From a virus: a DNA stretch of 64,000 bases. Shown one piece after another: positions 601 through 61,314 of the stretch (the first letter of the stretch is position 1; each line of letters opens with the position of its first letter). The position numbers were made by a program, and so were the translations under genes. The stretch lies in the IMG/VR virus record IMGVR_UViG_3300006175_000004, positions 1 through 64,000 of that record; one strand, given 5' to 3'. Under the pieces are notes generated by a model that saw nothing but the letters and a program-made list of their open reading frames with translations, was not told the origin of the DNA and did not search any database.

Positions 601-1823
601 TTGCTCCCTTCGATGGCTTCTGTTGCTTTGTGCGGGTCGCCCTTGCAGAAGATCAAGCAATACTGGTGGGACCGCCCAAGCTTCCGCGATCCTGAGAATT
701 GCTTTCCTACTCTGATCGACAGCGACCCAACGGCGGTGATCAGCACCGCGTCATTGTAAAGCCGGAGCCCCGCCTGCTCGAAAGCGTAGATCGTTTCAGG
801 CACCAACCCAGCGCAGTAACCATTCTTCTTGTCGCGCACTTCGCCCACCACGAATGCAGCAAAGCGGTTCTTCTTCAGCCGTGAACATGACGCCTTGATA
901 ATCTGCTCGTAGGCATCGCAAAACTTGTTCCACGACAGATTGGACAGGTCGGCTGGATCGTCGCTGTATTGCTCGAGGTTCCAATAGGGCGGGCAAGAGA
1001 AGACAGCGTCCTGACTTTCCTTCGCGACCACATTGGCGACGTCGCGAGCATCGCAGCAAACCCACCCCGGCATGGGCTTTTCGCAGATATCCTTCGCCTG
1101 CTGCTTGTTCGCGTCGATCTGCTCCTTTCGCAGATCACAGCCGAGATACTTGAAGCCCAATCGGGAAGCGACAATTCCGCGCACTGATCCGCCCGCGAAA
1201 GGATCAAGGATTTGCCCGCCCTTGGGAACAAACCACCGGTAGAACATTTCGCACAGCACAGGATCGAAGATCGATGTGCCGGTTTGCGATGCAGCACCAC
1301 CTTCTGTGCCATCATACGGGTGAATGGTCGTGCCGAAACTCAACCCGTTCTTATGCGATGCTGACTGCTTGCTGCGATATGGATCGGTGGTGGTATTGAA
1401 GGTCAGCCCGCCCCGCAGATTTGCGGTCTGTTTGCCCGTGGTGCCATCGCCACGTTTGTAGCCTTTGTCGGTTTTGAAAAGCCACGCAGAATTCTTGCCT
1501 GACCCGCCACCCGGTATGGCCTTCTTGTTTTTGAATTCACCCTGAAGCGTTCCCGGCCCACCAGTGTTGAATGACGCGGCCTTCTTCGCCCGCTTCTTCG
1601 CATCAGGCTCGAGCACCGTATCGGAAAACTTGAGCAAATTTTCGCCTCGCCCGATCTCGCTTCTGATACCCAAAGACAACCACGCAATCTTCCGGGCTTG
1701 CCATTCACCCGATCTGCAATCGAGCACGGTGAATGGCGGCAGGCCGAATCGCTGCGACAAGGCCCCGGCCCCGCCTTCGACGAAGACTTCACCTTCCGCA
1801 AACAAGTCCTTGTATTCGGTCAT
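597..1823 (-). CDS. DNA amino-methyltransferase (N6-adenine/N4-cytosine type fold)
   Basis: SAM-binding ILDPFAGGSVRG and catalytic-type SCPPYW motifs; ATGA coupling to the polymerase stop suggests start at 1823. Confidence 0.85.
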   Translation of the reverse strand: MTEYKDLFAEGEVFVEGGAGALSQRFGLPPFTVLDCRSGEWQARKIAWLSLGIRSEIGRGENLLKFSDTVLEPDAKKRAKKAASFNTGGPGTLQGEFKNKKAIPGGGSGKNSAWLFKTDKGYKRGDGTTGKQTANLRGGLTFNTTTDPYRSKQSASHKNGLSFGTTIHPYDGTEGGAASQTGTSIFDPVLCEMFYRWFVPKGGQILDPFAGGSVRGIVASRLGFKYLGCDLRKEQIDANKQQAKDICEKPMPGWVCCDARDVANVVAKESQDAVFSCPPYWNLEQYSDDPADLSNLSWNKFCDAYEQIIKASCSRLKKNRFAAFVVGEVRDKKNGYCAGLVPETIYAFEQAGLRLYNDAVLITAVGSLSIRVGKQFSGSRKLGRSHQYCLIFCKGDPHKATEAIEGSK

Positions 1824-4387
1824 GCTGCTGCCTTCCATGTATCAGTGCGGTAGACCGCCGCTTCCTGTTTCTCGTACAGATTGTTCCATACCGAGCATTC
1901 GACCACCAATGGCACATTCAAGAAATCGTAGTTCACCGACATCAATGTATCGACGGTCTTGTAAGCTAATTTGTCAAAGTGCTCTTCAGGGAAGATCATC
2001 CCGAAGTCATCGTGGATTTCTAGGATCGGCTGCAGGTCCCAATCTTCCTGCTCCGAAAGCTTGTTCATTCCGTCGATCACAATGTCGCACGCGAGCCCTT
2101 GCGGCAGCGTGTTGTAAATTTGATTAGGCGAAAGTGGTGCCCTGCGCCTGCGCCCCATCAGATTCTCTAGGTAGCCGGTCTTCTCATAGAACTTCTTCAC
2201 CCGCTCCTGCCATTTGCGCACCCCGGAGAAGGTGTCCCAAAACTCGTCATACAATGCGCCGCACAATTCCACCGGCACGCCCACCTGCCGGGCAGCGGTA
2301 TCCAATTGCGCCCCGAAGAACAGCGCGAAGACCCACCCGCCTTTCACCTTGGCATTGCGAAAAGTCTTCATCGCCTTTTTGTCTTCCAAGAACTTTTCGC
2401 CACCGACAGCGCGTGGATAGACGTAGGCAAGCTTGCCCGCCCATTCGCCGTGAACATCGTAGCCATCCCAAAGGGACTTCACGAAAGCCTTGTCCTGCGA
2501 TTCCATCGCAATACAGCGAGCTTCGATCTGTCCATAGTCGACCGAGAAACCCACGTAGCCGGGCGGGGCAATGATCTGTTTGCGAACCTTCTTCCCTTCA
2601 TCGTCACGAATCGGAATGTTCTGCTCATTCGGGTCTTCGGATGTCAGCCTTCCGCTTTCCGCGTAGTTGATGTTCAGCAGTGGGTGCAGCCTGCCATCAG
2701 GGTAGACAATCGGGCTGTCCTTGGTCCAAATGTATGTCGATAGCAACTTGTTCGGTTTCTTGTATTCCAGAATGCGCTTCGCAATGGGCCGCTTGATCGA
2801 CAAAAGGACAGCTTCGGTGGCTTTGTACCCGCCATTCTTCTGCCTGCCCTGTGGAAGCTGAAGCACGTCGCGAAACAGCTTCACCGCATCATCAGGCGAA
2901 AGCGGGTTGAATTCCCGCCGGTATTCCTTCTTGAAAAGCTTGGCGTCCGGATCGCCCGCAATGGCAGCGGCAGCGCCGACAAGCTGTGATTCAAGACCCG
3001 CTTTTTGCTTGCGGGCTTCAGCGTCGTCAATCGGCACGCCCTTGATTTGCGTCAGCACCACAGTTGGTGCCCGGCGAATGTGCCACCGGTAGAATTTGAA
3101 CAGCCCTTCGGCCTTCAGTCGCGCGGCCTGCTGATCGAAAAGCAGCCGGTGATATTTCGCATCGACGCCATTATAAAGCAGCACGTCGTCCAACGGCTGA
3201 TCCGCAATCTTGGTGGTATCAACATTGGTCAGCGTTTTGATGTTGACCCCGAAGTATTGCAGCGTGAGAAAGCCCAAGCCTAAACAGCTTCGGTCCTTCC
3301 GCTTGTCCTTCTCGTCGATCTTCGCGCCAACGCGCTCGTCAAGGATCGCGGCCTGCGACATGCTGCAGTCCCACTTCCCTTGCCGCAGCATGAAGCGACC
3401 GAACTTCACCCCGATCCATTCCATCTCGAAGGGCAGGTTGTGGACAATCTTGCGACATTTGGAGATGAAGAATTCGTGCACCGCGTCTTGGATCAGCCGA
3501 AACACATCCTTCGGCCACGGATGCTTTGGGTGATCGAAGGGAAAGGCAATGGTCTTGTCGTGAAGCGATATCGCCATCGTGCAAATGTGCGCACCCTTCC
3601 GATAAGGGCGCAGGACCGATGTCTCAAAGTCCAAGCCCGCCTGATCGGCTGTGCAAGCCCGCTCTAAAAACTTGATGATCCTTTCCGCAGCGCGGGGCAT
3701 ATCGGGGGTAATAATTTCCACATCGTCGAAGACCTGCTTCTTGGAATGCACCGCAGGATCAGGCAGCGATTCCACTTCATCGAATGCGTGTCGCAAATCC
3801 AATCCGAAGACGAAACCTTGCGCGGAATTTTCCCCACCTACCCGAAGCACGCCCGATGGATGCAGCATCGGATAATACCAGCAGGTATGCTTGCCGATCT
3901 GAATTGGCAGCCTGCGGCCCCGCCACTTGACAATCCCGGCCTGTCCTTGCGCCAATGCGTGGCCAATCGCCCAAGACAGGGGCACATTCCCCATTCCGAA
4001 GATCGCTCGGGGCTTGGTCTTCTCGATATCGCGCACAATGGAAGGGCGGCAGCATTCAATGGCGATCTGATCCGGCGTTTCGTTATCGGCAGGCCGAGTT
4101 CGAACGACATTGTTCCAACGGATCGCCACCCCATCCGGCACATGATACCGAAGCAACTGCCCGGATCGCCCTACGAACTGCTTGCCTTCGTAATCCTCAT
4201 CAGCGCCGGGTGCTTCGCCCAAGATATAGACCAAGGGCTTCCCCGATCCTGAAGCGGGCATGTGCGGGTTTGCATTGTCCTTGATCTTGTTCAGCGGACA
4301 CGCCTTGCATTCCATCTTGTGATACAGGTCGATGGATTGCTGCTCTTTGTCGACTTGTGGTTTCACATCAGCAAAGGACCATCCCAT
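1820..4387 (-). CDS. Family A DNA polymerase with N-terminal uracil-DNA glycosylase-like domain and 3'-5' exonuclease
   Basis: N-terminal CKACPL...GEAPGADED...FVGRSG...HPS (family-4 UDG motifs); exonuclease DFET, HNLPFE, YNGVD; polymerase motifs GRLTSEDPNEQNIP, DYGQIEAR, EIHDD. Confidence 0.95.
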   Translation of the reverse strand: MGWSFADVKPQVDKEQQSIDLYHKMECKACPLNKIKDNANPHMPASGSGKPLVYILGEAPGADEDYEGKQFVGRSGQLLRYHVPDGVAIRWNNVVRTRPADNETPDQIAIECCRPSIVRDIEKTKPRAIFGMGNVPLSWAIGHALAQGQAGIVKWRGRRLPIQIGKHTCWYYPMLHPSGVLRVGGENSAQGFVFGLDLRHAFDEVESLPDPAVHSKKQVFDDVEIITPDMPRAAERIIKFLERACTADQAGLDFETSVLRPYRKGAHICTMAISLHDKTIAFPFDHPKHPWPKDVFRLIQDAVHEFFISKCRKIVHNLPFEMEWIGVKFGRFMLRQGKWDCSMSQAAILDERVGAKIDEKDKRKDRSCLGLGFLTLQYFGVNIKTLTNVDTTKIADQPLDDVLLYNGVDAKYHRLLFDQQAARLKAEGLFKFYRWHIRRAPTVVLTQIKGVPIDDAEARKQKAGLESQLVGAAAAIAGDPDAKLFKKEYRREFNPLSPDDAVKLFRDVLQLPQGRQKNGGYKATEAVLLSIKRPIAKRILEYKKPNKLLSTYIWTKDSPIVYPDGRLHPLLNINYAESGRLTSEDPNEQNIPIRDDEGKKVRKQIIAPPGYVGFSVDYGQIEARCIAMESQDKAFVKSLWDGYDVHGEWAGKLAYVYPRAVGGEKFLEDKKAMKTFRNAKVKGGWVFALFFGAQLDTAARQVGVPVELCGALYDEFWDTFSGVRKWQERVKKFYEKTGYLENLMGRRRRAPLSPNQIYNTLPQGLACDIVIDGMNKLSEQEDWDLQPILEIHDDFGMIFPEEHFDKLAYKTVDTLMSVNYDFLNVPLVVECSVWNNLYEKQEAAVYRTDTWKAAA

Positions 4388-16326: not shown

Positions 16327-16380
16327 TCAACCAAAGCTGGGTTGGAAACCCCGGCTTCGATCTTGAAAGGATCAAATTCA

Positions 16381-17385
16381 ATGTCTGACATGACACTTGC
16401 CATCGCGACAGAGTGCCTTCTCGCCAATGTCGCGGCGAACATTCCCACAATGCTTTGGTCACCACCGGGCGTCGGAAAATCCGACACCGTCCGCTATGTG
16501 GGAAGTCTGCTCAAATGCTCGGTGATTGACTTCCGGGCAGCCCTTCGCGACCCGGTCGATTTGCGGGGCCTTCCCTTGGTCGATGCCAAGTCAGGCACGA
16601 CCCGCTGGCTTCCGCCCGCCGAGCTTCCGCAGGAAGGCCGCGACGGGAAGAAGGGTATTCTGTTCATGGACGAGCTGAATGCAGCATCCCGGATGATGAT
16701 GGCCGCGTGCTTTGGATTGGTCCTTGAACGGAAGGTGGGCGAATATGTCCTTCCCGATGGCTGGGCAATCATTGCGGCGGGCAATCGCGTGCTTGACCGG
16801 GCCGCAGCCAATTCCATGCCGACCGCCTTGCGGAATCGGTTCGCCCATCTGACCATCGTGCCCGATTTACAAAGCTGGTGTGAATGGGCCGCACGGGTGG
16901 GCTTGCACCCATTGGTCACCGCCTTCGTTCGCTTCCGCCCTGAATTGCTGCACAAGATGCCGGAAGGCGAGGAGAACAGCTTCCCGACCCCGCGTGCATG
17001 GGAACGGGTGGCGAAGATTTGCGATGCGAAGGAAGGCATCCGCCAGCATCTGGTATCAGCCCTTGTGGGCGACGGCCCGGCTGCGGAATTCGAGGGCTTC
17101 ATCCGGGTATGGAAGAACCTGCCGTCGATCAACGACATCCTCGCCAATCCCCGGACGGTGCACTGCCCTTCTTACGATGAGCCCGCTCAGTGCTACGCCT
17201 TGGCGACAGGCTTGGCTCGCCGCTGCGACAAATCCAACTTCACAAATGCGGTGGCCTACACGGATCGGTTGCCGCGCGAATTCAGCGTGATGTTCGTGAT
17301 CGATGCCATCAAGAAGAACCCCGATCTGAAGAACACCAAGGCATTCACCGGCTGGTTCGCCCGCAATAGCGACGTCCTGATCTGA
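16381..17385 (+). CDS. MoxR-like AAA+ ATPase
   Basis: SPPGVGKS, DPVDLRGLP, LFMDELN, AAGN, ALRNRF, FPTPRAWE. Confidence 0.9.
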   Translation: MSDMTLAIATECLLANVAANIPTMLWSPPGVGKSDTVRYVGSLLKCSVIDFRAALRDPVDLRGLPLVDAKSGTTRWLPPAELPQEGRDGKKGILFMDELNAASRMMMAACFGLVLERKVGEYVLPDGWAIIAAGNRVLDRAAANSMPTALRNRFAHLTIVPDLQSWCEWAARVGLHPLVTAFVRFRPELLHKMPEGEENSFPTPRAWERVAKICDAKEGIRQHLVSALVGDGPAAEFEGFIRVWKNLPSINDILANPRTVHCPSYDEPAQCYALATGLARRCDKSNFTNAVAYTDRLPREFSVMFVIDAIKKNPDLKNTKAFTGWFARNSDVLI

Positions 17386-17399
17386 AAGGAGATCAAACA

Positions 17400-17591
17400 A
17401 TGTTGTGGATGGTTATTCAAAAACCAAAGCATCGATACGTGATGATTCAGAATATCCGATGCACAGTGATCGAAGCTCGATCAGGAAGGGCCGCGATTCA
17501 CCAAGCCAAGATAAGAAACTTCATCTGTGACAGAGACTACAGGCAACCTAAAGCAGTTCAGATCACAGCCGATTTGGACCTGTGGTTCTGA
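17400..17591 (+). CDS. Small hypothetical protein
   Basis: AAAGGAG SD before ATG. Confidence 0.55.
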   Translation: MLWMVIQKPKHRYVMIQNIRCTVIEARSGRAAIHQAKIRNFICDRDYRQPKAVQITADLDLWF

Positions 17592-17602
17592 AAGGATCGA
17601 CC

Positions 17603-17716
17603 ATGACTACTTGGATCATTTCCCACCAAACCGCCTTCTCTTGGTTTTGGTATGGCTTCGCAGCAGCGCAAGTGCTGAACCTTTTCTTCGCACTGATCAA
17701 AGGATCAAGAAGATGA
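17603..17716 (+). CDS. 37-aa membrane peptide (not in ORF track)
   Basis: AAAGGA SD; MTTWIISHQTAFSWFWYGFAAAQVLNLFFALIKGSRR; ATGA overlap with next gene. Confidence 0.55.
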   Translation: MTTWIISHQTAFSWFWYGFAAAQVLNLFFALIKGSRR

Positions 17717-18957
17717 AACCACAAGCAATCGACCCGCGCATGATCAAAGCGCGGACATCGCTGATTCACCGCCACCCATTTTGGGGAAGCTTGGCGTTGC
17801 ATCTGCAAATCGTGGAAGACCCATCGGTGGAGACAATGGCTGTCGATGGGAAGCATTTGTTCTACGCCCCGAAGTTTCTGGACACATTGACGCAGGCGCA
17901 AATCGAAGCGGTGATCGCGCACGAAGTTTGCCACTGCGCTTACAAGCACCATGTCCGCAGGGGCAGCCGCGATTTTGAATTGTGGAACGAAGCTTGCGAC
18001 CACCCGATCAATTTGGACTTACAACGAGCGGGCTTTGATTTGCCGAAGCCCAATCTGTGCGATCCTCAATATGATCGGATGTCGGCTGAAGAAGTCTTCG
18101 CCATCATTGCCAAGAAGCAGGCCGAGCAACAGAAGCAGCAGGGCCAAGGCCAAGGGCAAGGGCAGGGCGCGGCAGGAAGCCCGCAGCCGGGCGGGCAACA
18201 GCCGGGGCAATCCAAGCCCGGCCAAGGGCAAGGACAGCCCGGAAAGGGCACGATTCGCGGCCCTGCGGGCATGGGAAAGGTGCTTGACGCGGCCCCTGAG
18301 CATGATCAGGCGGCAACGGCCAAGGAAGAAGCCGAGTGGGACGTTCTGGTTCGCCAAGCCCTGTCGGTGGAAGCGGGTCGCAATGCCGGAAAGCTGCCCG
18401 GCAATTTGGCCCGCATGGCTGAAGCGGTGAAGCAACGGCCCGTCGATTGGCGGGAAGTATTGCACCGCTTCGTCGATAGCCGAGCATCGTGGGACTATTC
18501 TTGGTCCCATCCCAACAAGCGCATGTTGGGTGGCGGGATCATTTTCCCCGGCACCGAGCCTGATGGGATCGGCAAGCTTGCGGTGGTCCGCGATACTTCA
18601 GGATCGATTGACCGTCGATTGGCGGGCCGCTTCAATAACGAACTGCAAGCCATCCTAGACGATGGATCGGTATCTGAAGTGGTGATGATCGATTGCGACG
18701 CTTCCGTTCGCGATGTTCGTCATTTTCAGATGGGCGATCAGATCAGCATGGAAGTCAAAGGCGGCGGTGGCACCCGCTTCTCACCCGCCTTGGAATGGTT
18801 GGCACAAAAGGAAACCGACATTGTTGCGATCATCTATCTGACCGATCTGGATTGTCGCGACTTCGGACCTGAACCGAATGTGCCGACCCTGTGGGCTGCC
18901 TATGGTCCGAAGGCCCGCAACAGTGTGCCCTTCGGGGAAAAGATCATTCTAATATGA
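17713..18957 (+). CDS. Putative metallopeptidase + vWA domain protein (DUF2201-like)
   Basis: HEVCH (HExxH), WNEACD, Q/G-rich linker, MIDAS DTSGS, GGGGTRF, YLTD. Confidence 0.88.
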   Translation: MKPQAIDPRMIKARTSLIHRHPFWGSLALHLQIVEDPSVETMAVDGKHLFYAPKFLDTLTQAQIEAVIAHEVCHCAYKHHVRRGSRDFELWNEACDHPINLDLQRAGFDLPKPNLCDPQYDRMSAEEVFAIIAKKQAEQQKQQGQGQGQGQGAAGSPQPGGQQPGQSKPGQGQGQPGKGTIRGPAGMGKVLDAAPEHDQAATAKEEAEWDVLVRQALSVEAGRNAGKLPGNLARMAEAVKQRPVDWREVLHRFVDSRASWDYSWSHPNKRMLGGGIIFPGTEPDGIGKLAVVRDTSGSIDRRLAGRFNNELQAILDDGSVSEVVMIDCDASVRDVRHFQMGDQISMEVKGGGGTRFSPALEWLAQKETDIVAIIYLTDLDCRDFGPEPNVPTLWAAYGPKARNSVPFGEKIILI

Positions 18958-50191: not shown

Positions 50192-51100
50192 TCAGATTTG
50201 AACGAGTGCGCAGGAACCGGAACGGTTCCATGTGGCGAAGCCGGTGACCGGGTCGTAGCTGACCACCATGCTGTTGCCGATCTGCACGTTCAGAATTTTG
50301 ACCGGCAGAATGGCAGCGGCTGCACCGCCAACAAGCAGCGATCCACCAGTGATGGTGGAAGCACCAAGCCCGGACCCGGCATTGTAGACCACTGTCGATC
50401 CGGTCGTCCCTGCCAAGGCGGTGAATGTGCCGTTCAGGGAAGCGAATGCCCCGGTGCCGGTCAGCGATGACACCGTGACCGAGTCGCCCGGCCCGAATGT
50501 GATCGGGGCGGACATGGTCAGTGTGACCACACCCGTGCCGTCAACATAAGTGCCGGATGAAATGGTCAGCGCAGAAGCGATGTAGGGCACCAACCGCTGA
50601 TTGGTGAAGTCCCATGACACCGCTTGCGTGATGATATTCCCCTCAAGATCGACCAGTGCAGGATCGATGGCCAGCGCAATGCGGGCGTTCGATCCAAGAC
50701 GGTAGAAATTGACGGTCATGCCGGAAGCGGCAAGTGGGACCGGCGATTGCGGCGTATTGATCATGGAATGGTCCTGATCAAACACCGAGAAGCCGGTCAG
50801 ATCGCCAGCGTCGCCACCGTCAGGCGGGTTCTCCGTATCGGCAATCTGCGTAGCGCGGGTGATCTTCCCGCCATTGACGCCGTTTGCCGATCCGCCAGAA
50901 TATGGCGAAGTGGTTTCACTGATTGCGACACCGCCCCACATGGGAATGGTCTCGCTGTCAGCAAGTACGCCACCGGCCAACCGATAGCGGGCCGAAGGAT
51001 CGTCCATCGCCTGACCCTGAATGTAGCCATCCGACTGGACATTGAATGAACCCGCACCATTGGTGGTAACAAGCGGGTTGAAGGCAATTTGAGCAGACAT
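50192..51100 (-). CDS. Capsid decoration/cement protein
   Basis: GYIQGQAMDDP, PMWGGVAISE, FYRLGSNARI, SWDF; internal beta-domain insertion. Confidence 0.75.
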   Translation of the reverse strand: MSAQIAFNPLVTTNGAGSFNVQSDGYIQGQAMDDPSARYRLAGGVLADSETIPMWGGVAISETTSPYSGGSANGVNGGKITRATQIADTENPPDGGDAGDLTGFSVFDQDHSMINTPQSPVPLAASGMTVNFYRLGSNARIALAIDPALVDLEGNIITQAVSWDFTNQRLVPYIASALTISSGTYVDGTGVVTLTMSAPITFGPGDSVTVSSLTGTGAFASLNGTFTALAGTTGSTVVYNAGSGLGASTITGGSLLVGGAAAAILPVKILNVQIGNSMVVSYDPVTGFATWNRSGSCALVQI

Positions 51101-51174: not shown

Positions 51175-52116
51175 TCAGCGGCCCTGTTGTGCCGATGGCG
51201 TCAGGAAACCGCCTTTGTCCCAATCCACCTTCTGCACCGGGGCTTTGAAGTCGCGCACGAAGCTGTGCTTGCCGACAAAGCTGATCGTGCGCTGACCGGT
51301 CGCATGGTCAGTGCGGGTAATCTGACGAAGCTCGTCTTCCGGCAGATCGACAGGATTGTCCGCAGCCTTGAACGCGTCTGCGTAAATCTGCCCTTCAGCC
51401 ACATCGAAGGCCGCGTCCGCAATTGCGGCGACATCAACCTTCGACCATGCAGGCGAATGGACCTTCAGCGCGGTAGCCAACCGGCGCTTGTAGGCTTCCA
51501 ACGTTTCCCCATCCAAGGGGCGCGGCGCTGAATCACCAAAGGCTTGGAAGACCGTGTCCGCCTTCGCCTGCACTTCTGCCCGCTTGCGGAAATCCGCATC
51601 GGACATCTGCAACGGCATCCGGCGTTTCAGATCGGCAATTTCGCGCTTCATGGCTTTGACATCGACGCTGTCCTTGCGGGCATCATCGTCATCATCGTCG
51701 TCCTTCTTCGCGTCCTTGCGACCCTTCTTTTTGTCGGCAACGGCGACCTTTTTGTCTTCTTCTTCGTCTTCGTCATCGTCGTCGTCATCGTCGTCGTCTT
51801 TTTTGTCTTCCTTCTTCCCCTTCATGTCTTCAGGGAAGTCGTCCTTCTTGGCCGCATCCTTTTTGTCGGCCTTTTTGTCTTCCTTCTTTTCTTCTTCTTC
51901 GTCGTCGTCATCGTCGTCGGCCTTCTTGGCTTCGAACGCATCCATGCGCGACGACATTGAATCGACCTTCGCTGCGTACTCGTCAAAACGCTGACGATCA
52001 TCGGCCCGGCCTTTCGCCAAGCTGTCAAGACCCGTCAGGATTTTGTCGAGTTTGTCTCCACCTTCCGCATCTGCTCGCACCTTCGCTTCTGCGGCCTTTC
52101 TTTCTTCATCCGTCAC
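51175..52116 (-). CDS. Nested in-frame scaffolding protein (internal start)
   Basis: AAAGGAG SD 8 nt before an in-frame GTG right after the protease domain. Confidence 0.6.
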   Translation of the reverse strand: MTDEERKAAEAKVRADAEGGDKLDKILTGLDSLAKGRADDRQRFDEYAAKVDSMSSRMDAFEAKKADDDDDDEEEEKKEDKKADKKDAAKKDDFPEDMKGKKEDKKDDDDDDDDDEDEEEDKKVAVADKKKGRKDAKKDDDDDDDARKDSVDVKAMKREIADLKRRMPLQMSDADFRKRAEVQAKADTVFQAFGDSAPRPLDGETLEAYKRRLATALKVHSPAWSKVDVAAIADAAFDVAEGQIYADAFKAADNPVDLPEDELRQITRTDHATGQRTISFVGKHSFVRDFKAPVQKVDWDKGGFLTPSAQQGR

Positions 52117-53118
52117 TGTACTGTCTCCTTTCACGAGAGTAGCCACACCGGCTGGATCGCCACCTTTGTCCCAAACACCCTTCTCGCAGATGGCGATATG
52201 ATCGAGCAGAGAAGGTTTACCTTCAATCAGTAATTGTTCACCTGTATCCAATTCCACTTTCGTATTGACGCTTGGATCGCGGAACACCACCGCAGGCGAC
52301 GTGGAAAGCTGTGTGTTCCGCATTTCCTTGATTGCATCTGCATCGTAGATTTTAGCGATGCCCCAAACTTCGCTCGCTTCCGGCTTCAGGTACGGCAGGA
52401 AGACTGATCCAACAACGCGGTCGTTGAATTCCTTGCTGTTCAACATCGCGCTTTTGGGATGCTCGAAGATTACCGACAAGCCCATGCACCGCTGCACGAA
52501 GTCTTCATTCATGTACAGCGATGGATCGCGCCACACATATTCGTTGTGCTTGTGGCGATAGGCCATTCCGGTGCCGGTAATGCGGATATTGAACAGCCAC
52601 ATGTTGTCATAGGGCTGCGGGCTGACCAGAAGCCCGGACATCATCGCGCGGGCGACAGCGAGTTCGTCCATGCCAAGGCGGTCGAGCGCAATCTGACAGC
52701 CGGGGTGCATCGGCTGCGGTGGCTGATCGATGGGTGCCCAAGCCCATCCGACATGTTCGCCATTGACCGTAGGCGTGAATTCTTCCTTCACCCGCTGAAT
52801 GAATGTGGTGAAGTCGACTTCTTCCCCCGGCGCTGCTTCGCCCGGTAGCAAGGCAACGCTGCCATTCAGAGGTGCAGGGGCAAGCGGGGTTGGATCACGG
52901 GGCCTGATTTGCCGCGTCCATTCGGCCCGTGGCCCTGCGGGTATCTTGCCACATTCTTCGATGGCTTCGCGCTCAGCTGCTTCCAGCTCGGTCTCGTCGC
53001 CTTCGATATGGCCACCGGGGAAGCACCAGAAGCCGGGGTAATCACCGCCCGGCCCGCGCTTCAGATACAGGGCCTTGCGATCCTGCGTGATGAAAAGAAT
53101 TCCGGCAGCGCGGATCAT
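51175..53118 (-). CDS. NUDIX hydrolase - prohead protease (DUF2213-like) - scaffold fusion
   Basis: Intact Nudix box GGHIEGDETELEAAEREAIEECG; protease RITGTG, FEHP, QLSTSP, LDHIAIC.KGVWDK; acidic D/E/K-rich scaffold C-terminus. Confidence 0.85.
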   Translation of the reverse strand: MIRAAGILFITQDRKALYLKRGPGGDYPGFWCFPGGHIEGDETELEAAEREAIEECGKIPAGPRAEWTRQIRPRDPTPLAPAPLNGSVALLPGEAAPGEEVDFTTFIQRVKEEFTPTVNGEHVGWAWAPIDQPPQPMHPGCQIALDRLGMDELAVARAMMSGLLVSPQPYDNMWLFNIRITGTGMAYRHKHNEYVWRDPSLYMNEDFVQRCMGLSVIFEHPKSAMLNSKEFNDRVVGSVFLPYLKPEASEVWGIAKIYDADAIKEMRNTQLSTSPAVVFRDPSVNTKVELDTGEQLLIEGKPSLLDHIAICEKGVWDKGGDPAGVATLVKGDSTVTDEERKAAEAKVRADAEGGDKLDKILTGLDSLAKGRADDRQRFDEYAAKVDSMSSRMDAFEAKKADDDDDDEEEEKKEDKKADKKDAAKKDDFPEDMKGKKEDKKDDDDDDDDDEDEEEDKKVAVADKKKGRKDAKKDDDDDDDARKDSVDVKAMKREIADLKRRMPLQMSDADFRKRAEVQAKADTVFQAFGDSAPRPLDGETLEAYKRRLATALKVHSPAWSKVDVAAIADAAFDVAEGQIYADAFKAADNPVDLPEDELRQITRTDHATGQRTISFVGKHSFVRDFKAPVQKVDWDKGGFLTPSAQQGR

Positions 53119-54407
53119 CAGGATACCACTTTCACTTTGCCTTCGGGGATCATGTAGTTGGTATTTTCAGATGGGGCCGATTGGATTTGCAGGTGGCCGT
53201 CGCGGGCAGACAGAACCCGACCGGTTTCGCCGTGGCCACGAATGCCCGGCGCATTGATCTTCACCTGCTTGCCGATCATCGGGTGCTTGTCAGCATCGGT
53301 CCTCGTCTTTGACCTAGGCGGAACAACCGTCACTGATTTGACGTTGCTCTGCGCCTTCATTTCCTTCTCCATGTGACGAGCTTCACTTTCGTGAGTGTAA
53401 ACATAGGTGTCAAAGTCACCGGTCTTCCAATAGACTTTGACTTCCCAATAGCTGGAAGCATCACCACGAACGGCCTTCTTCTTGTCAGGGCCTTCCATCA
53501 TCTTCGCGATGTCGCGGTCGATGTCGTCGATCTTCGCAGCCAATTCCCCGGCCTTGGCAGGATTGCCTTCCGATTTTATCAAGCGGTCAAGCTGGCTCTG
53601 AAGCTCGGTACGCAAGGCCCGCAGGCGAACCAGTTCACCTGCTGTGCTGTCGGCCTTTATTTCGCTGACATATATTCCGGTGCAATCCGGGTGCTTTCGG
53701 TGGGCAATCTTCGCCGCTTCATCTTTGGTAGCTGCCTTGATGTCCAAATCGGCCACGTGCTTTGACGATTGCGGGGTCTTGAATACTTGTACGTGCCATT
53801 CCCGCTCGGCTGCATCAGCCTTCGTGCCCTGATTGGGTTCACGATATGATGCAGCAATGGAATCGATCTTCACCATTGCTTCATCCATCAGGCACGCGTC
53901 CATCTTGGCGCAGATCGCGTCAAGCATCGATGAAGCGGGCGATACCGCGCTGTCGCTGCGCGGTTCCCACTCAAGGGCACCTTCGTCGTTTTCGACATAG
54001 GCCCCTTTGGTCTGTTTGGCCTTGGCGACCGCTTCCTTGAAGCTGTCGATCTGCCCGGAGATTTTACGGCCGTCTTTCACGACGAAGAAGGTCTCCGGCA
54101 CATTCTGCTCAATGCGTGAGTCGGCCCGATTTGCCCCTTCCAATTCCTTGGTCAGATCACGGACGTTCTGCTCGAGCTTTTCCTTGCTCGGGATATTGAT
54201 GGTGTTGAACCGACCGCCCGCCAGCAACTTCTTGGCTTCGGCAAGTTCTTGTTGGATCGCTTCACGTGGCCTGCCTGCATCCGCCCGATCCACGCCCGAT
54301 ATCTTCCCGGCATTCTTGGAAGCGTAGAAGACTTGCTTCCCCTTGTCGCCACCGTATTCCTTTTCCATCGCGGCAAGGATTTCCTCACCTTTTGCTGTCA
54401 ACGGCAT
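53118..54407 (-). CDS. Modular head-associated polyprotein-like protein
   Basis: Conserved MPLTAKG...VFYASKN N-terminal module; seven regularly spaced [RK]xD[AS] motifs; TGATG-coupled to protease gene. Confidence 0.7.
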   Translation of the reverse strand: MPLTAKGEEILAAMEKEYGGDKGKQVFYASKNAGKISGVDRADAGRPREAIQQELAEAKKLLAGGRFNTINIPSKEKLEQNVRDLTKELEGANRADSRIEQNVPETFFVVKDGRKISGQIDSFKEAVAKAKQTKGAYVENDEGALEWEPRSDSAVSPASSMLDAICAKMDACLMDEAMVKIDSIAASYREPNQGTKADAAEREWHVQVFKTPQSSKHVADLDIKAATKDEAAKIAHRKHPDCTGIYVSEIKADSTAGELVRLRALRTELQSQLDRLIKSEGNPAKAGELAAKIDDIDRDIAKMMEGPDKKKAVRGDASSYWEVKVYWKTGDFDTYVYTHESEARHMEKEMKAQSNVKSVTVVPPRSKTRTDADKHPMIGKQVKINAPGIRGHGETGRVLSARDGHLQIQSAPSENTNYMIPEGKVKVVS

Positions 54408-54419
54408 TTGCGTAACCCC

Positions 54420-54758
54420 TTATTGCAGGATGATCGCGTTGTTGATGACAGCGGTGCTGCCGGAAGCATTGGCAAGCTTGATCTTGAACCACCCGAACAG
54501 CTTCCCGTCCGCGATGGCCTTGTTGGTCAGGGTATTGGCGCTGATCGCCTGCGTGGTTTCTTGCACAAGAATATCCCCGGCAGGATCGGCGTATTGATCG
54601 ATGGTCAGCGTCAGGTCGTGGGTGGCCTTCGCCCAAACCGAAATGTTCGCGCCGTGGCTGATTATGATACCGGAGTCATAGGTGACACCGGTAAGAATTT
54701 GTGCCGGGAATGGATTGAGCGGCGGAACCGGGCCTGCAGCATTCGGGTACGGAACCAT
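54420..54758 (-). CDS. Hypothetical (putative virion) protein
   Basis: 112-aa beta-rich ORF in head module. Confidence 0.55.
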   Translation of the reverse strand: MVPYPNAAGPVPPLNPFPAQILTGVTYDSGIIISHGANISVWAKATHDLTLTIDQYADPAGDILVQETTQAISANTLTNKAIADGKLFGWFKIKLANASGSTAVINNAIILQ

Positions 54759-54770
54759 TGGTTGTCCCTT

Positions 54771-55163
54771 CTATTGAATGGGCGGAAATTTCAGGCGAAG
54801 GCGAATTATGTTGACCTGATCCTTCAGGGCCTGGATCGTTTTCTGCTCTGTCTTGTTCGGCCTTGGCCCTGCGTCCGCTTGCGCCTGCTGCAACTGGAAC
54901 TGGTACCATTCCAAGTCGCGCTGATCGCTGCGGTTTTCGGCTGCATCCAAACGCTGAAGAATTCGGTCGTTATTCTGCTGAAGTGTTTGTAGCTGCTTGC
55001 CAAGCTGCACCAAGGCAATTTCGCCGGGGATTGGCAGCGGGCCGCTCTGAATGATCCCGTCCACAATTGGTGCAGCCCATGACACCACAGTAACACCCAT
55101 CATCAGCCCGCCACCGACAGCAGCGACCCACTTTGCCAACCGGATGATCTGAATTCTGTCCAT
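54771..55163 (-). CDS. Membrane-anchored coiled-coil protein
   Basis: N-terminal TM, Gln-rich coil. Confidence 0.5.
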   Translation of the reverse strand: MDRIQIIRLAKWVAAVGGGLMMGVTVVSWAAPIVDGIIQSGPLPIPGEIALVQLGKQLQTLQQNNDRILQRLDAAENRSDQRDLEWYQFQLQQAQADAGPRPNKTEQKTIQALKDQVNIIRLRLKFPPIQ

Positions 55164-55189
55164 GACTGCACCAATCGCTTTAGGATGAT

Positions 55190-55453
55190 TTATTTCTTCC
55201 CGGCCTTCTTCGCCTTCCATGCCTTCTGTTTGGCGATGGCTGCGTCGCCTGCCGGATGACCCGCAGGAGCGTGCTCGTAGATCGTCAGCGATCTACCATC
55301 TGACATTGCCAGTTGGTAGGCGTCGATGATCCCTTCCTGATCGGTCATCAGCATGTTGGTGCCGTGAGCAATCGATTCCTGCAGCTTGTCCAAATCCAAG
55401 CTGCCGTCCGGCGCGTGCGGGTCGTGATTCCATGTGGTAGGTTTATGTGCCAT
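55190..55453 (-). CDS. Hypothetical protein
   Basis: AGGAG SD, 87 aa. Confidence 0.55.
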   Translation of the reverse strand: MAHKPTTWNHDPHAPDGSLDLDKLQESIAHGTNMLMTDQEGIIDAYQLAMSDGRSLTIYEHAPAGHPAGDAAIAKQKAWKAKKAGKK

Positions 55454-55742
55454 TGGGTGCTCCTTTGCTTTGATCGCCGGTTTCCAATTCGGTGGGCGAT
55501 ATCACCGGTTCCATTCCATTGCGGACCCATTCCAAGGCTGCATCCCGCGCGGCGATTGCGTGGGTCACCTCTTCCTTGAAATGCTGCACGCTATTGATCG
55601 CCGGGTGCCTGACGAACAGCAGCATCACAAGAGTGCCTACCCGCTCACCAAAGCCTTTGTGGATTGCACCTTCGTAGTAAGCGATCCGCCTGATTTTCAA
55701 CTCGCGCTGTGCCGCAGCGGCAAGGTCTTCAGAAGCCGTCAC
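55443..55742 (-). CDS. Hypothetical protein
   Basis: GTGA-coupled to head morphogenesis gene. Confidence 0.5.
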   Translation of the reverse strand: MTASEDLAAAAQRELKIRRIAYYEGAIHKGFGERVGTLVMLLFVRHPAINSVQHFKEEVTHAIAARDAALEWVRNGMEPVISPTELETGDQSKGAPNGT

Positions 55743-56593
55743 AATCCAGCCACCATTTCGCGCACCTTGGCCTGCGCTTCCTTCAGGCTCTTCTCGCCTT
55801 TCGCGGTCAGCATCGACTTCGGCAGATCGCGCACATGGTAGACATATTGGCCGTAGCAGCGACAGAATGGTTCTTCAGCGGGCTGCGTGATCTTGTCGAG
55901 AAACCCCGCGTTGCCTTGCCGCATCAATCCCTGCTCGAGAGCCCAGTTGCCCCGAATGGTATAGACCAGCATGTCGCGCTCCTTGTGGTCTTCGCGATAA
56001 TTGTAGCCCGGCTGCCGCCAATGGCTGTGCCAGATCATCGCAAGCGCGTTGTTGTCTTTCGCCACGATGTCATTGATTGCCGATGTCAGCTTGTGGCCCT
56101 GATCAATCAGCACGCGGCGTTCTTCAAATTTGGTCCGCGCCAGCGACTTGCGTATATCCTGCTTGGCTGCGGGCTTCTGACCGGCCACTTTCGTTCCGCC
56201 CTTGGGGATCGATGTGGCCCAACCACTGAAGCGTTGCAGCGTCTTCTCGATGGATTGCTGACGGTTCAATCTGATGAGATTGGCCGATGCCAGTATCCGG
56301 CGATCCAATTCCGCCCGAAGATGAGGCCGCAACCGTTCAATGGTAAATCTTCCGACCCCGGCATGATACCGAGCGATGCCGCCCTTCTCGACCATGCGGG
56401 TATAAATCGCGATCAACCCGCCCCGCAGCATGGCCTCGAGCACATGGGGCTGGGTGAATTCCTTTTCGGCTGCTTCCTTGATCTTCTTTTCCCACATCAC
56501 CAATCGTTCAACGGTGTCGAAGCCGTGGGTGAGCAAGTCATCCACGGCTTCAGTGACAACGTCGTAGAAGGAATTACCCTTCTGTGATGGCAT
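55739..56593 (-). CDS. Head morphogenesis protein (SPP1 gp7/Mu gpF-like)
   Basis: IDQGHKL, WHSHW...YREDHKERD, PAEEPFCRC. Confidence 0.85.
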   Translation of the reverse strand: MPSQKGNSFYDVVTEAVDDLLTHGFDTVERLVMWEKKIKEAAEKEFTQPHVLEAMLRGGLIAIYTRMVEKGGIARYHAGVGRFTIERLRPHLRAELDRRILASANLIRLNRQQSIEKTLQRFSGWATSIPKGGTKVAGQKPAAKQDIRKSLARTKFEERRVLIDQGHKLTSAINDIVAKDNNALAMIWHSHWRQPGYNYREDHKERDMLVYTIRGNWALEQGLMRQGNAGFLDKITQPAEEPFCRCYGQYVYHVRDLPKSMLTAKGEKSLKEAQAKVREMVAGL

Positions 56594-57926: not shown

Positions 57927-59510
57927 CTAGGCAGCGCGATCCATTTTCTTGCTTTGACGCAGCAACTTGGTCAACACATTGACCATTGCAGAGTCAGCCC
58001 TTGGCAGCTTCGGCTGATGCTCTTTCGGTGCCGCCTGCTTGCCCGGCTGCTTGTCGCCGTCTTCTTCGTCATCGCCTTCGCCGTCATCTTCGTCGTCGCT
58101 CTGATCATTCCCGCCACCGCCACCGTTCTGCATCATTGCGGCCTGCGGGTCGAAGTTCTCCAAGGCGTCGAAGTCGAGCATCAATTCGTTCGGGAACAGC
58201 AGCTTCAATTCGTTGAAGTTGTCCGCCAGCCATTGAATGATGATGTTGCGATTGTCGGGATCGACCGCAGGAAGCAGGACTTCGACCGCTTCGATCATCG
58301 CATCCAATCGGGTCTTGTCGACCTTCTGCTGTTCCGATGGCGGTTCGGTCAGCAGCGAAGGCCATTCAAACGCGAACGTGTTCACCCAATCGTAGAAGGC
58401 TTCGGTATAGGATTTGGTTTCGTATTCAGGGAAGTCAGCCTTCAGCGTTTCGTAGAATTCCGGGGTCCACGCCTTGTACATGCAGACCTTGTCACAGAAC
58501 TGATACAGGGGCCGCAGCCATGTGCGAACCCCGTCAATGTATTTGGCGATGTTCTTGGCGTCTTCGGTGCCTTCCGCCATCCCGCCGACCATTGTCTCAT
58601 TTTCCAGAAGCTTCGCGGGCATGTCAGCAGCGGTCGCGATGTTCTTCAGGATATTGGTGCGCACCACCTGATAGGGGCCGTCGAGATTGCGGAAGTTCAG
58701 GCTTTCGATTGCATCGTCCGGGCCGATAGAAATGACCCCGCCCGTCGATGCTTCCCTGATCATTCCGCGCTTCTGGCCCCACACCAGTTGCATCATGTTG
58801 TTGATGATCGACCCCGGTGCTTTGATCTTGGCAATCAGAACGCCGACCTTCACCGTGACCAAGTCATCGGTCAGAAGCGTTTGCAGAAACGACTTCAGCG
58901 GGAACAGCGCTCGCTGGTAGACGCTTCTGCCGACGAAGCCGAAGGCCGATTGTGTGAACGCGATATAGATCGGCTCTTCGTTCAGCACCACAACGCTTCG
59001 GCTGCGATGGAATGCGCTGCCCTGAACGCTGACCTGATCGGGTTTCATAAAGTCGATTGACAGCGGGTTCTGGTTCAGCACCAGCGATCCGGCTGTATTC
59101 AATGGATCGTAGACGTTGAAGCTGGTCTTCAGCTTCGACAGCTCTTTGTAATCGAGCGGCCTGCCGGGTGGCACGCCTTCCGCCATCAGGGTCAGCGTGG
59201 CGATCCCGTAGACGCGCGACAGGGATGCGACATTCTTGATTGCGCCATCGCAGCCAAGCTTGGTCCACATTTCCTCAAAGGCATTCTTCACGCGGTCTTG
59301 CGGCGATTTGCTGACCACAATTTCGCGCTTCTGCGATTGGGCCATTTTGATCGGGGCTTCCGCCATCTTGGCCCCAAGCGGGTGGTACAGGTAGATCGTC
59401 TTGCAAAGCTGATACGACGGATCGTCGCCCGGCTGTATATCTTCGGCCTGCAACAGATCGGACAACTGGTTGCCCAGCGACGATCCATTGATGCTGATGC
59501 TTGCTGGCAT
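57927..59510 (-). CDS. Portal protein (DUF1073-like)
   Basis: PSYQLCKTIYLYHPLG, HRSR, FGFVGRSVYQRA, IATAADMPA, EGTED; follows terminase. Confidence 0.88.
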   Translation of the reverse strand: MPASISINGSSLGNQLSDLLQAEDIQPGDDPSYQLCKTIYLYHPLGAKMAEAPIKMAQSQKREIVVSKSPQDRVKNAFEEMWTKLGCDGAIKNVASLSRVYGIATLTLMAEGVPPGRPLDYKELSKLKTSFNVYDPLNTAGSLVLNQNPLSIDFMKPDQVSVQGSAFHRSRSVVVLNEEPIYIAFTQSAFGFVGRSVYQRALFPLKSFLQTLLTDDLVTVKVGVLIAKIKAPGSIINNMMQLVWGQKRGMIREASTGGVISIGPDDAIESLNFRNLDGPYQVVRTNILKNIATAADMPAKLLENETMVGGMAEGTEDAKNIAKYIDGVRTWLRPLYQFCDKVCMYKAWTPEFYETLKADFPEYETKSYTEAFYDWVNTFAFEWPSLLTEPPSEQQKVDKTRLDAMIEAVEVLLPAVDPDNRNIIIQWLADNFNELKLLFPNELMLDFDALENFDPQAAMMQNGGGGGNDQSDDEDDGEGDDEEDGDKQPGKQAAPKEHQPKLPRADSAMVNVLTKLLRQSKKMDRAA

Positions 59511-59991: not shown

Positions 59992-61314
59992 TCAGTATCC
60001 CGACGAGTCACCCAACGCCAACGATATGCCATAGCAGAAGCAATCCAACAGATCGTCGGCCCGCTTGTTCGCATCCGGATCGGCAACCCTGAAGCCCAAT
60101 ATCTGCGACATCATTTGATTGCGGGTGCTGCCCTTGAACGTGGTCACCTTGTCATAGGCTTGCTCGGTCACCTTGACCAAACCCTGATAGACATAACCGC
60201 TGACATTGATCGCCCGCTCGTCCTTGCCCTTGCTCACCAGCTCGGTGTCAATGGCTTGGGCTTTCCATCCCCGCTTCACCGCTTGCTGAAGCAGGATCGT
60301 GCCGCTGTTTGTATCTTCGATGAATGCACCCAACGATCCAGCGCGGGCCTCGTATTCCTTTGCGAAGGATTCCAGCAGCCGGAACACATTGGGCAGCCAT
60401 GCTTCAAGGCTTGCGCCTTCGATCTGTACAAGGTCCCAATCCAGAATGTAGAGTGTGTTCCCCTTCGATTTGGTGAAACCGAAATAGATCACGCCGGTGC
60501 CGTCATTCTCCTTTCCGGTCTTGATGGCCGTATCAATGACCGCGAAGACGCTGTCGATCCGCTTGGGACAGACCGCAGGCTTCCCATTGATGAGCAGCTT
60601 GTCCTTGCCGAAGAAGGCGATACCCGACCAGTCGACGAATTCGGCCAAGTATTCCTGCTGATAAACCAACGGGTGGTTTTCAGCTTCCAGCTCCTTGAAA
60701 ATGACTTCCCTGCGGGCCAGCCACTCGGCTTCGGTCTCATGGGGATCGCGGATCGGGATGAGGGGATTGTCGAACGTGGGCGCGTGGAATTCTACAAAGC
60801 CCAGCTTCTTCTCATTGCAAATCTTGTAAAGGAAATTGTCGGGATCGTTTCCGTTGGTGTTCGACAGAACAATCGCGCTGCCCTGATAATCCAACAGCGT
60901 GGGCCTGATCGATTTCTCCCAAATCCCCAACATATTGTTCTTGGTGAATGCACCTTCGTCGATGATCACCTTGTGATAGTGCCGGGATCGCCCGGCTGAC
61001 TCGTTGTCCAATGTCCAGAAATCAATCCGGCCACCGCCTATGGTACGAATGACCCCTTCGACCTTGCTGCTACTGGTCCGGATCGGCAGAAGCATGGCAG
61101 CCAGATCGTTGAAGGCTTCCGATGATTTCTTGTAATCAGGGGCGAACCATCCGATGCATTCCTGATTGATTGCGCCATCAGCGGCAATCACTTCACCGAA
61201 TGTGGTCTTCCCCCATCGCCTTCCGCACCTGATGGCTTTGAAGCGGGCCGGGTAATCGAATGCTGATACCTGCCCGTCATGCAGGGTCGGCAGTGACACA
61301 TGGACATCAGGCAT
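59992..61314 (-). CDS. Terminase large subunit
   Basis: CGRRWGKT Walker A, VIIDEGA Walker B, QQEYLAEF, IDTA, DDLLD nuclease residues. Confidence 0.95.
   Translation of the reverse strand: MPDVHVSLPTLHDGQVSAFDYPARFKAIRCGRRWGKTTFGEVIAADGAINQECIGWFAPDYKKSSEAFNDLAAMLLPIRTSSSKVEGVIRTIGGGRIDFWTLDNESAGRSRHYHKVIIDEGAFTKNNMLGIWEKSIRPTLLDYQGSAIVLSNTNGNDPDNFLYKICNEKKLGFVEFHAPTFDNPLIPIRDPHETEAEWLARREVIFKELEAENHPLVYQQEYLAEFVDWSGIAFFGKDKLLINGKPAVCPKRIDSVFAVIDTAIKTGKENDGTGVIYFGFTKSKGNTLYILDWDLVQIEGASLEAWLPNVFRLLESFAKEYEARAGSLGAFIEDTNSGTILLQQAVKRGWKAQAIDTELVSKGKDERAINVSGYVYQGLVKVTEQAYDKVTTFKGSTRNQMMSQILGFRVADPDANKRADDLLDCFCYGISLALGDSSGY

Follow-up and report, generated by a model that had tools for sequence, protein, structure and literature searches.

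A candidate capsid-cargo polyprotein of exchangeable mini-domains encoded next to the prohead protease of an uncultured phage

MuF polymorphic toxins reportedly consist of a conserved MuF head domain that carries variable C-terminal toxin domains. In phage T4, the internal proteins IPI, IPII, IPIII and Alt bear a capsid targeting sequence that the prohead protease gp21 removes at the motif [LI]-x-E (reviews: PMC3012670, PMC9026906). In phiKZ-like giant phages, a gp21-type protease recognises a short motif in numerous proteins inside the head and cuts some of them at more than one place (PMC10052503, PMC7411985). Polyvalent proteins are mosaic strings of 2-15 unrelated domains for which packaging and injection have been predicted (Iyer, Burroughs, Anand, de Souza, Aravind 2017; PMC5512222). 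In this study, we analysed a window of 64,000 nucleotides (nt), positions 1-64,000 of the IMG/VR record IMGVR_UViG_3300006175_000004, which derives from an uncultured phage and whose full length is 74,108 bp (complete, with direct terminal repeats). Within the head gene block on the minus strand, the list of open reading frames (ORFs) and their translation reveal a gene (P0001, 53118-54407) for a protein of 429 amino acids (aa), composed of a conserved N-terminal module (N-module) and seven variable modules. We put at roughly 55% the probability that its product is a polyprotein which enters the prohead and which the prohead protease cuts at the joints between the modules.

The locus shares several features with these known systems. 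Like the T4 internal proteins, the putative polyprotein is non-structural, is encoded among head genes, begins with a short candidate address and varies in content between related phages; the protease has the same predicted fold (gp21, Z 10.2), and an acidic residue at the presumed P1 position is followed by a small one. Unlike in T4, where separate genes each yield a protein with one cut behind a leader of 10-20 aa, a single gene holds seven or eight joints between mini-domains of 46-63 aa. Moreover, the presumed P1 is Asp here and not Glu, and the address candidate is a folded module of 40 aa that also occurs as a free protein. The ejection and inner-body proteins of phiKZ-like phages likewise combine a gp21-type protease with a short motif and sometimes multiple sites per protein, but there long propeptides are trimmed from large proteins, whereas here the whole protein would be split into folded, exchangeable units of similar size. 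Like polyvalent proteins, the polyproteins are domain strings of mosaic architecture encoded with portal, MuF and head genes. Polyvalent proteins, however, are large, are made of recognisable enzyme domains and often bring their own peptidase domain, in contrast to the units of about 55 aa, the motif joints and the separate protease found here; Pfam, PHROG and NCBIfam recognised no effector or enzyme domain in the polyprotein. A conserved head-associated N-terminal part with variable C-terminal cargo also recalls the MuF toxins. In this case, the carrier is a 40-aa module unrelated to MuF and the cargo comprises many small modules instead of one toxin domain; the polyprotein has no match to a MuF domain, and MuF is a separate gene. 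The concept is close to T4 internal proteins, phiKZ-like ejection proteins and polyvalent proteins, and differs from them in four respects: a whole gene is divided into mini-domains, the joints end in Asp, modules are exchanged as cassettes, and the N-module is unannotated. No description of this architecture was found in the literature on DUF2213, XkdF, phage polyproteins and phage ribosome modulation factor (RMF).

Seven motifs of the strict form [RK][ASGT]D[AS], with a small residue at P2, partition the protein: RADA at aa 41, RADS at 94, RSDS at 150, KADA at 196, KADS at 251, RGDA at 314 and RTDA at 369. Both these positions and the spacing of 46-63 aa (in order, 53, 56, 46, 55, 63 and 55 aa) agree with the initial annotation of this locus. 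Only 0.27 strict motifs are expected in the polyprotein, and none of 20,000 composition-preserving shuffles reached seven. The looser pattern used originally, [RK]xD[AS], matches nine times; the seven listed sites stand, and two others inside module 4 (KMDA at 168 and KIDS at 180) had been overlooked. Across the 77 non-overlapping ORFs of the window (19,805 aa), the strict motif occurs 14 times, half of them in the polyprotein gene, two in the next gene, one in the portal tail and four as single occurrences elsewhere. The shuffles and the ORF count rule out chance or low complexity as the source of the motif in the polyprotein gene. We also considered a DNA repeat, such as a recombination site, and rejected it because the seven joints use different codons: the peptide is conserved and the DNA is not. 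No residue preference was found beyond the four motif positions. The gene is preceded by a ribosome-binding site, AAGGGG, 8 nt upstream of its ATG, and its stop codon overlaps the start of the protease gene by one base (TGATG), in agreement with the proposed translational coupling of the two genes.

The eight modules delimited by these joints were examined in a single-sequence AlphaFold model, which is weak overall (mean predicted local distance difference test score, pLDDT, 64.8). In the following, coordinates refer to the minus strand and a slash marks the putative cut. The N-module (aa 1-43, 54279-54407) is a 40-aa helical hairpin, with predicted helices at 5-18 and 20-32, which ends in G-V-D and is followed by joint 1, RAD/A (aa 41-44). 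Module 2 (aa 44-96, 54120-54278) is a second hairpin with helices at 48-63 and 75-98, up to joint 2, RAD/S (aa 94-97). Module 3 (aa 97-152, 53952-54119) is a small alpha/beta unit closed by joint 3, RSD/S (aa 150-153), and module 4 (aa 153-198, 53814-53951) contains a scaffold-like 'LDA' helix before joint 4, KAD/A (aa 196-199). Beta-beta-alpha-beta units form module 5 (aa 199-253, 53649-53813), which ends at joint 5, KAD/S (aa 251-254), and module 7 (aa 317-371, 53295-53459), which ends at joint 7, RTD/A (aa 369-372). Between them lies module 6 (aa 254-316, 53460-53648), a helical hairpin (helices 255-279 and 283-305) with joint 6, RGD/A (aa 314-317). The terminal module 8 (aa 372-429, 53121-53294) is an all-beta, SH3/KOW-like unit. 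Thus, among modules 2-8 only 2, 4 and 6 are helical, and beta structure is present in 3, 5, 7 and 8.

Every segment between two joints has its own predicted secondary structure, and pLDDT troughs fall on joints, at 42-44, 95-104 (below 50), 150-199, 307-318 and 365-373. The segment 153-198 is poorly predicted and mostly helical. Hence, the expectation that the joints would lie in low-pLDDT linkers between separately structured units was borne out, and the model reproduced the module classes read earlier from the letters: hairpins at 48-98 and 255-305, alpha/beta units at 107-147, 202-249 and 321-362, and an all-beta unit at 381-419. Searches of the whole polyprotein and of each module against Pfam, PHROGs and NCBIfam returned a single match, of module 7 to phrog_4939 (E 7.5e-4), a family of 67-aa stand-alone phage proteins; units similar to module 7 are also repeated in the protein of a related locus (L005). 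No module of the eight matched a known effector family in these databases. Module 8 has as structural neighbours in the Atlas KOW, NdhS and SH3-like domains together with viral proteins of 60-68 aa, and module 4 resembles two helices, the one that follows the protease domain and the one at the N-terminus of scaffolds encoded by genes of their own. Since the model is a string of beads, a Foldseek comparison of the whole model with viral models was uninformative, returning with a high target TM-score only stand-alone viral proteins of 52-58 aa.

The comparison with relatives shows that the locus is hypervariable although the head module around it is conserved. Across five related IMG/VR phages, all flanking head genes align end to end at 50-80% identity, whereas alignment of the polyprotein gene is limited to the N-terminus, from aa 1-40 to aa 1-63. 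Similarly, sequence searches yielded 896 cluster representatives that match the polyprotein, nearly all of them over aa 1-45 only. No matches were obtained in an IMG/VR scan with the whole polyprotein or in a metagenome scan with a related polyprotein (P0002). Per-module BLAST searches found modules 3, 4, 5, 6 and 8 again in other metagenomic polyproteins (P0047, P0002, P0003, P0045 and P0043), in another order and with other neighbours. These recurring modules always begin and end at a K/R-x-D/A or K/R-x-D/S joint, with their edges at the same positions. Module 3 has a counterpart in P0047 (64% identity across its full 56 aa) that lies between KAD/S and RGD/S, and module 5 has one in P0045 (65% identity across its full 55 aa) that lies between KAD/A and KAD/S. 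In P0002, module 4 immediately follows the N-module; it also occurs in P0003, and joints flank it on either side. Module 6 is 88% identical to its counterpart in P0002 and 73% in P0003, each preceded by KAD/S. Module 8 is 95% identical to that of P0002, where KAD/A stands before it and another module after it, and 63% to that of P0043. For module 2, no homologue outside the polyprotein was found by the same searches. P0002 illustrates the pattern: it has the first 40 residues in common with our polyprotein, together with modules 4, 6 and 8 at 74-95% identity, and it lacks modules 2, 3, 5 and 7, with two other modules in their place. A further relative, P0028, consists of the N-module and about eight modules with R-[GS]-D/A joints. 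The cassette architecture suggested at the outset thus holds, with variable module number and order and joints conserved exactly at the module edges; homologues that were colinear and lacked conserved motifs, the outcome that would have spoken against it, were not encountered.

Some modules of the relatives can be named. An RMF module (PF04957) is present in one of them (L086:3525-6014, plus strand) with 36.7 bits, above the cut-off; a second (P0073) scores 23.3 bits, below the cut-off, and weaker look-alikes occur in P0152 and P0003. DUF6900 modules are also found in polyproteins of relatives. Judging from these matches, the RMF modules may be phage-delivered ribosome modulators.

A second lineage of the same protein type (L086, L099, P0038, P0152 and P0099) bears K-[TS]-K-D joints, five to nine per protein, so that the joints of both lineages end in Asp. 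P0002 and P0038 have one module in common (48% identity over 67 aa, E 1e-13), and on both sides of it each protein has the joint of its own lineage; the joint therefore belongs to the phage and not to the module. In addition, the N-module of the second lineage lies inside the protein, and internal N-modules are preceded by Asp (D/PLT in P0080, P0099, P0152, L086 and L099), where a cut would restore the N-terminus of the stand-alone form. The phage that carries L099 encodes a canonical DUF2213 protease-scaffold (168 bits), in which TKD is found twice against 0.12 expected (P 0.005), and a second module string of 229 aa directly upstream of this protease. The K-T-K-D polyproteins share another N-terminal leader, M-L-L/V ... 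I-K-[DN]-[IV]-K-N, as seen in L114:693-1382 (plus strand), P0038, P0152, P0099 and L099. One phage of this lineage has two genes with the leader, one after the terminase gene and one just before the protease gene.

The gene downstream of the polyprotein gene (51175-53118, minus strand) had been taken for a DUF2213-like protease. It does encode a protease domain, as part of a NUDIX-protease-scaffold fusion of 647 aa and not as a plain protease. A NUDIX domain occupies aa 3-138 (52705-53112; PF00293, E 3e-15, with NUDIX matches in the PDB), the prohead protease domain about aa 165-332 (52123-52626; PF09979 and a model of gp21 fold), and a scaffold-like C-terminal part, made of an acidic low-complexity stretch and helices, aa 333-647 (51178-52122). 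The isolated protease domain scores 21.5 bits against PF09979 (DUF2213), just under the cut-off of 22 (E 2.5e-4); close relatives of the protein are annotated with both PF09979 and PF00293. A pairwise BLAST comparison of the protease with one canonical DUF2213 member was not significant. In an AlphaFold model built with 24 relatives (pLDDT 86.4), the best structural match of this domain is T4 gp21 (5jbl_A; Z 10.2, root-mean-square deviation 2.9, 129 aa), followed by herpesvirus proteases (Z 5-7.3), and the domain is thus predicted to adopt the fold of T4 gp21 and herpesvirus assemblin. In the 25 aligned proteases, His220 is found in 100% and His307 in 96%; Ser272/274 is conserved in the clade only, and the alignment to canonical DUF2213 members is shifted there.

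The boundary between protease and scaffold carries the motif KGD/S (aa 330-333, 52120-52131, minus strand). Its Asp332 is conserved in 24 of the 25 aligned proteases, canonical DUF2213 members included, and sits immediately C-terminal to the protease domain, in the one stretch where the pLDDT of the model falls below 50. The linker at this place is where prohead proteases usually process themselves. By comparison, proteases of the gp21 type cleave behind an acidic residue that precedes a small one; gp245 of SPN3US cuts after A-x-E and prefers Ser at P1' (PMC10052503). A Xanthomonas phage paper (PMC2248197) contained no usable cleavage site. No motif lies between the NUDIX and protease domains of the 647-aa protein. 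If carried into the prohead with the protease, the NUDIX domain could be a packaged enzyme. The NUDIX-protease-scaffold fusion is also encoded by the cultured Pantoea phage PdC23, the Klebsiella phages Chronis and RothC/D and the Shewanella phage QDWS, where it is annotated merely as 'NUDIX hydrolase' or hypothetical.

The joint motif recurs in other head proteins. The scaffold part of the 647-aa protein has RADA at aa 348 together with the looser KVDS at 384, RMDA at 391, KKDA at 419, RKDA at 467 and RKDS at 481. In relatives with a protease of 370 aa, the scaffold is a separate gene that is rich in the motif. The portal carries RAD/S in its C-terminal tail (aa 504-507, 57990-58001, minus strand), and most portals of the clade keep R-A-D-S/D or A-A-D-S about 20 aa before the C-terminal end of tails that otherwise vary. 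In one relative (L039), small C-terminal modules of the MuF protein are bounded by the motif. This MuF-like protein (L039:4979-7096, plus strand; the same in L040) has an intein-like insert and ends in Cys-rich modules with R-A-D and R-T-D joints; the Cys-rich modules resemble the tail of the protein of another locus (L042), which has a weak HiPIP match. The link to the protease that the initial annotation had drawn is strengthened by the gp21 fold, by Asp332 and by the motif in the scaffold, portal tail and MuF protein.

The N-module is the constant element of the locus. It is found at 549 or more IMG/VR loci and has 14 invariant columns; of 251 sequences, 207 have G-V-D at positions 38-40 and 31 have G-V-E, and the next residue is mostly Ser or Ala. 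No Pfam, PHROG or NCBIfam model covers it, and its structural neighbours in the Atlas are unnamed viral clusters. Among 87 loci, it occurs as a free protein of 44-60 aa with a short basic tail, with variable tails that reach 1,962 aa, and as an N-terminal fusion to DUF2213 proteases. This last form supports prohead loading, because such proteases must themselves enter the prohead. The N-module is thus common to DUF2213 proteases and variable-tail proteins, as the module 4 helix is to scaffolds, and both are candidates for prohead targeting. The longest of these proteins (L055:8001-13886, plus strand; 1,962 aa) starts with the N-module, and the rest is a Gly/Ala/Pro-rich repeat chain with a Cys-Gly-rich stretch and repeated G-E-A-A-P-M-G-G units; this protein has no Pfam match. 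Among cultured phages, the N-module was found only in HMO-2011 (gp63) and in the pelagiphages HTVC023P and HTVC033P, near portal and terminase genes. HMO-2011 gp63 (L103:6001-6360, plus strand) joins the N-module to a strongly basic tail of 80 aa, a composition that suggests a DNA-associated internal head protein.

We propose the following course of events. The N-module, and probably also the scaffold-like helix of module 4, would bring the polyprotein into the assembling prohead with the protease-scaffold protein, which would be made from the translationally coupled next gene. There, the gp21-fold protease, active only inside the prohead, would cut after the Asp of every [RK]-small-Asp/Ala or Ser joint and would cut its own scaffold part and the portal tail likewise, releasing seven or eight mini-proteins of 4.6-6.9 kDa. 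Since a module would need no more than a joint that suits the resident protease, phages could acquire, lose and swap modules as cassettes. The fragments may remain inside the head until the DNA passes into the next host and go in with it, like T4 internal proteins, or may leave the head.

Several points weigh against this proposal. Cleavage, loading and the fate of the fragments are steps that we infer, for the polyprotein and its relatives alike, and the literature searched gives no cleavage rule for DUF2213 proteases. The capsid protein of the clade has neither a propeptide nor the motif and therefore offers no cleavage site for calibration. The motifs of the scaffold lie largely in K/A/D-rich low-complexity sequence and are less telling there. 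In the second lineage, the exact KTKD is absent from the cognate protease-scaffold of the L099 phage, which has TKD only. The N-module is present in HMO-2011-type podophages, where the protease was not seen, and its role therefore cannot depend on the protease alone. PdC23, Chronis, RothC/D and QDWS, with the same NUDIX-protease, are without a polyprotein gene and no cultured relative carrying one was found; therefore, there is no direct model. Finally, pieces as small as 5-7 kDa might leak out of the prohead, which is the usual fate of propeptides (PMC10052503).

As to the function of the mini-proteins, three observations are in favour of delivered effectors: relatives have RMF modules, modules resemble small phage proteins that stand alone, and module turnover is fast. 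An extended version of the proposal is accordingly broad: many tailed phages with a DUF2213 protease may carry strings of exchangeable mini-proteins, addressed by the N-module, cut at a lineage-specific Asp joint and injected as a first wave into the host. The joint would then be a code that makes any module pluggable into any phage, and some modules would be RMF-like and others perhaps anti-defence. We regard this extension as tentative, possible and somewhat doubtful.

Sequence features in favour of an assembly role are the scaffold-like helices and the conserved short form of the gene. They lead to a different explanation, in which the gene product is an auxiliary or sacrificial core protein that co-assembles with the scaffold and is cut for clearance before DNA packaging, its modules being filler or assembly aids. 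Module 4 does copy the N-terminal helix of scaffolds, and a recurring helix ending in E-P-E-H before a joint is found in polyproteins and scaffold regions alike. Moreover, in the subclade with the 370-aa protease the gene encodes a conserved protein of 104-148 aa that is not hypervariable, composed of the N-module and a helix like module 4 and the scaffold N-terminal helix; protease-made fragments are, in general, expected to leave the head (PMC10052503). Scaffolding proteins are mostly helical and encoded just before the capsid gene; the polyprotein resembles them in module 4 but has beta structure in modules 3, 5, 7 and 8, and the scaffold function already resides in the C-terminal part of the next gene's product. 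Filler, however, would leave unexplained the folded alpha/beta and SH3-like units resembling stand-alone small phage proteins, the RMF modules in relatives and the rapid exchange of modules amid colinear head genes. We consider this explanation unlikely.

The beads might also stay uncut on their string, the motif being a habit of flexible linkers or a repeated docking motif to the capsid interior or scaffold, similar to the cargo-loading peptides of encapsulins. Packaging without cleavage is known for the N4 virion RNA polymerase and for many polyvalent phage proteins (PMC5512222), and scaffolds, which have to bind the capsid protein, contain the motif at high density. The joints themselves make a docking or linker role improbable: in both lineages Asp is followed by a small residue, as at the cleavage sites of related proteases, Asp precedes the internal N-modules, and the near-invariant Asp332 lies in a disordered linker at the usual place of self-processing. 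Cutting in the cytoplasm, with small late proteins acting unpackaged in the same infection, would fit the translational coupling to the protease gene and the likeness of modules to stand-alone small proteins, but is very improbable, since prohead proteases of this fold (T4 gp21, HK97 gp4) are active only once assembled in the prohead, and the position in the head module, the N-module common with proteases and the helices common with scaffolds point to the prohead.

If the protease does cut at the joints, as we propose, Asp at P1 together with lineage-specific P2-P4 would be a testable cleavage rule for a family of head proteases that is very large but has hardly been studied. A widespread, unannotated 40-aa module would become a candidate head-loading address, including in the abundant marine HMO-2011 and pelagiphages. 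Phages would have a compact way to carry and swap many small proteins that are in the host from the first second of infection, and a search for new anti-defence or host-takeover factors could naturally start with these mini-proteins. The address and joint together could also serve to load chosen proteins into phage capsids.

The remaining genes of the head block, all on the minus strand, follow an order that is kept in relatives from terL to the capsid protein, with the polyprotein gene next to the prohead protease gene: terL, portal, MuF, two small genes, polyprotein, protease-scaffold, a 302-aa protein and the capsid protein of 340 aa. The large terminase is encoded at 59992-61314, the portal (527 aa) at 57927-59510 and the MuF/SPP1 gp7-like protein, as a gene of its own, at 55739-56593 (phrog_324). 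The two small genes between MuF and the polyprotein have no family match: one (54771-55220, 149 aa) has a predicted membrane helix, and the other (54420-54758, 112 aa) is kept in two relatives, L005 (63%) and L001 (35%). The 302-aa protein (50192-51100, phrog_6268), whose gene separates that of the protease-scaffold from that of the capsid protein, is conserved throughout the clade and may be a second capsid or decoration protein; its homologue in Pantoea phage PdC23 is labelled 'endosialidase', which is doubtful at that position. Outside the head block, a single ORF of 855 aa (1820-4387, minus strand) combines a domain of the uracil-DNA glycosylase superfamily with a 3'-5' exonuclease and a family A DNA polymerase. 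The half of the genome that holds the replication genes also contains a gene for an AAA_5 (MoxR-like) ATPase, followed by a DUF2201 metallopeptidase/VWA-like gene (16342-18957, plus strand).

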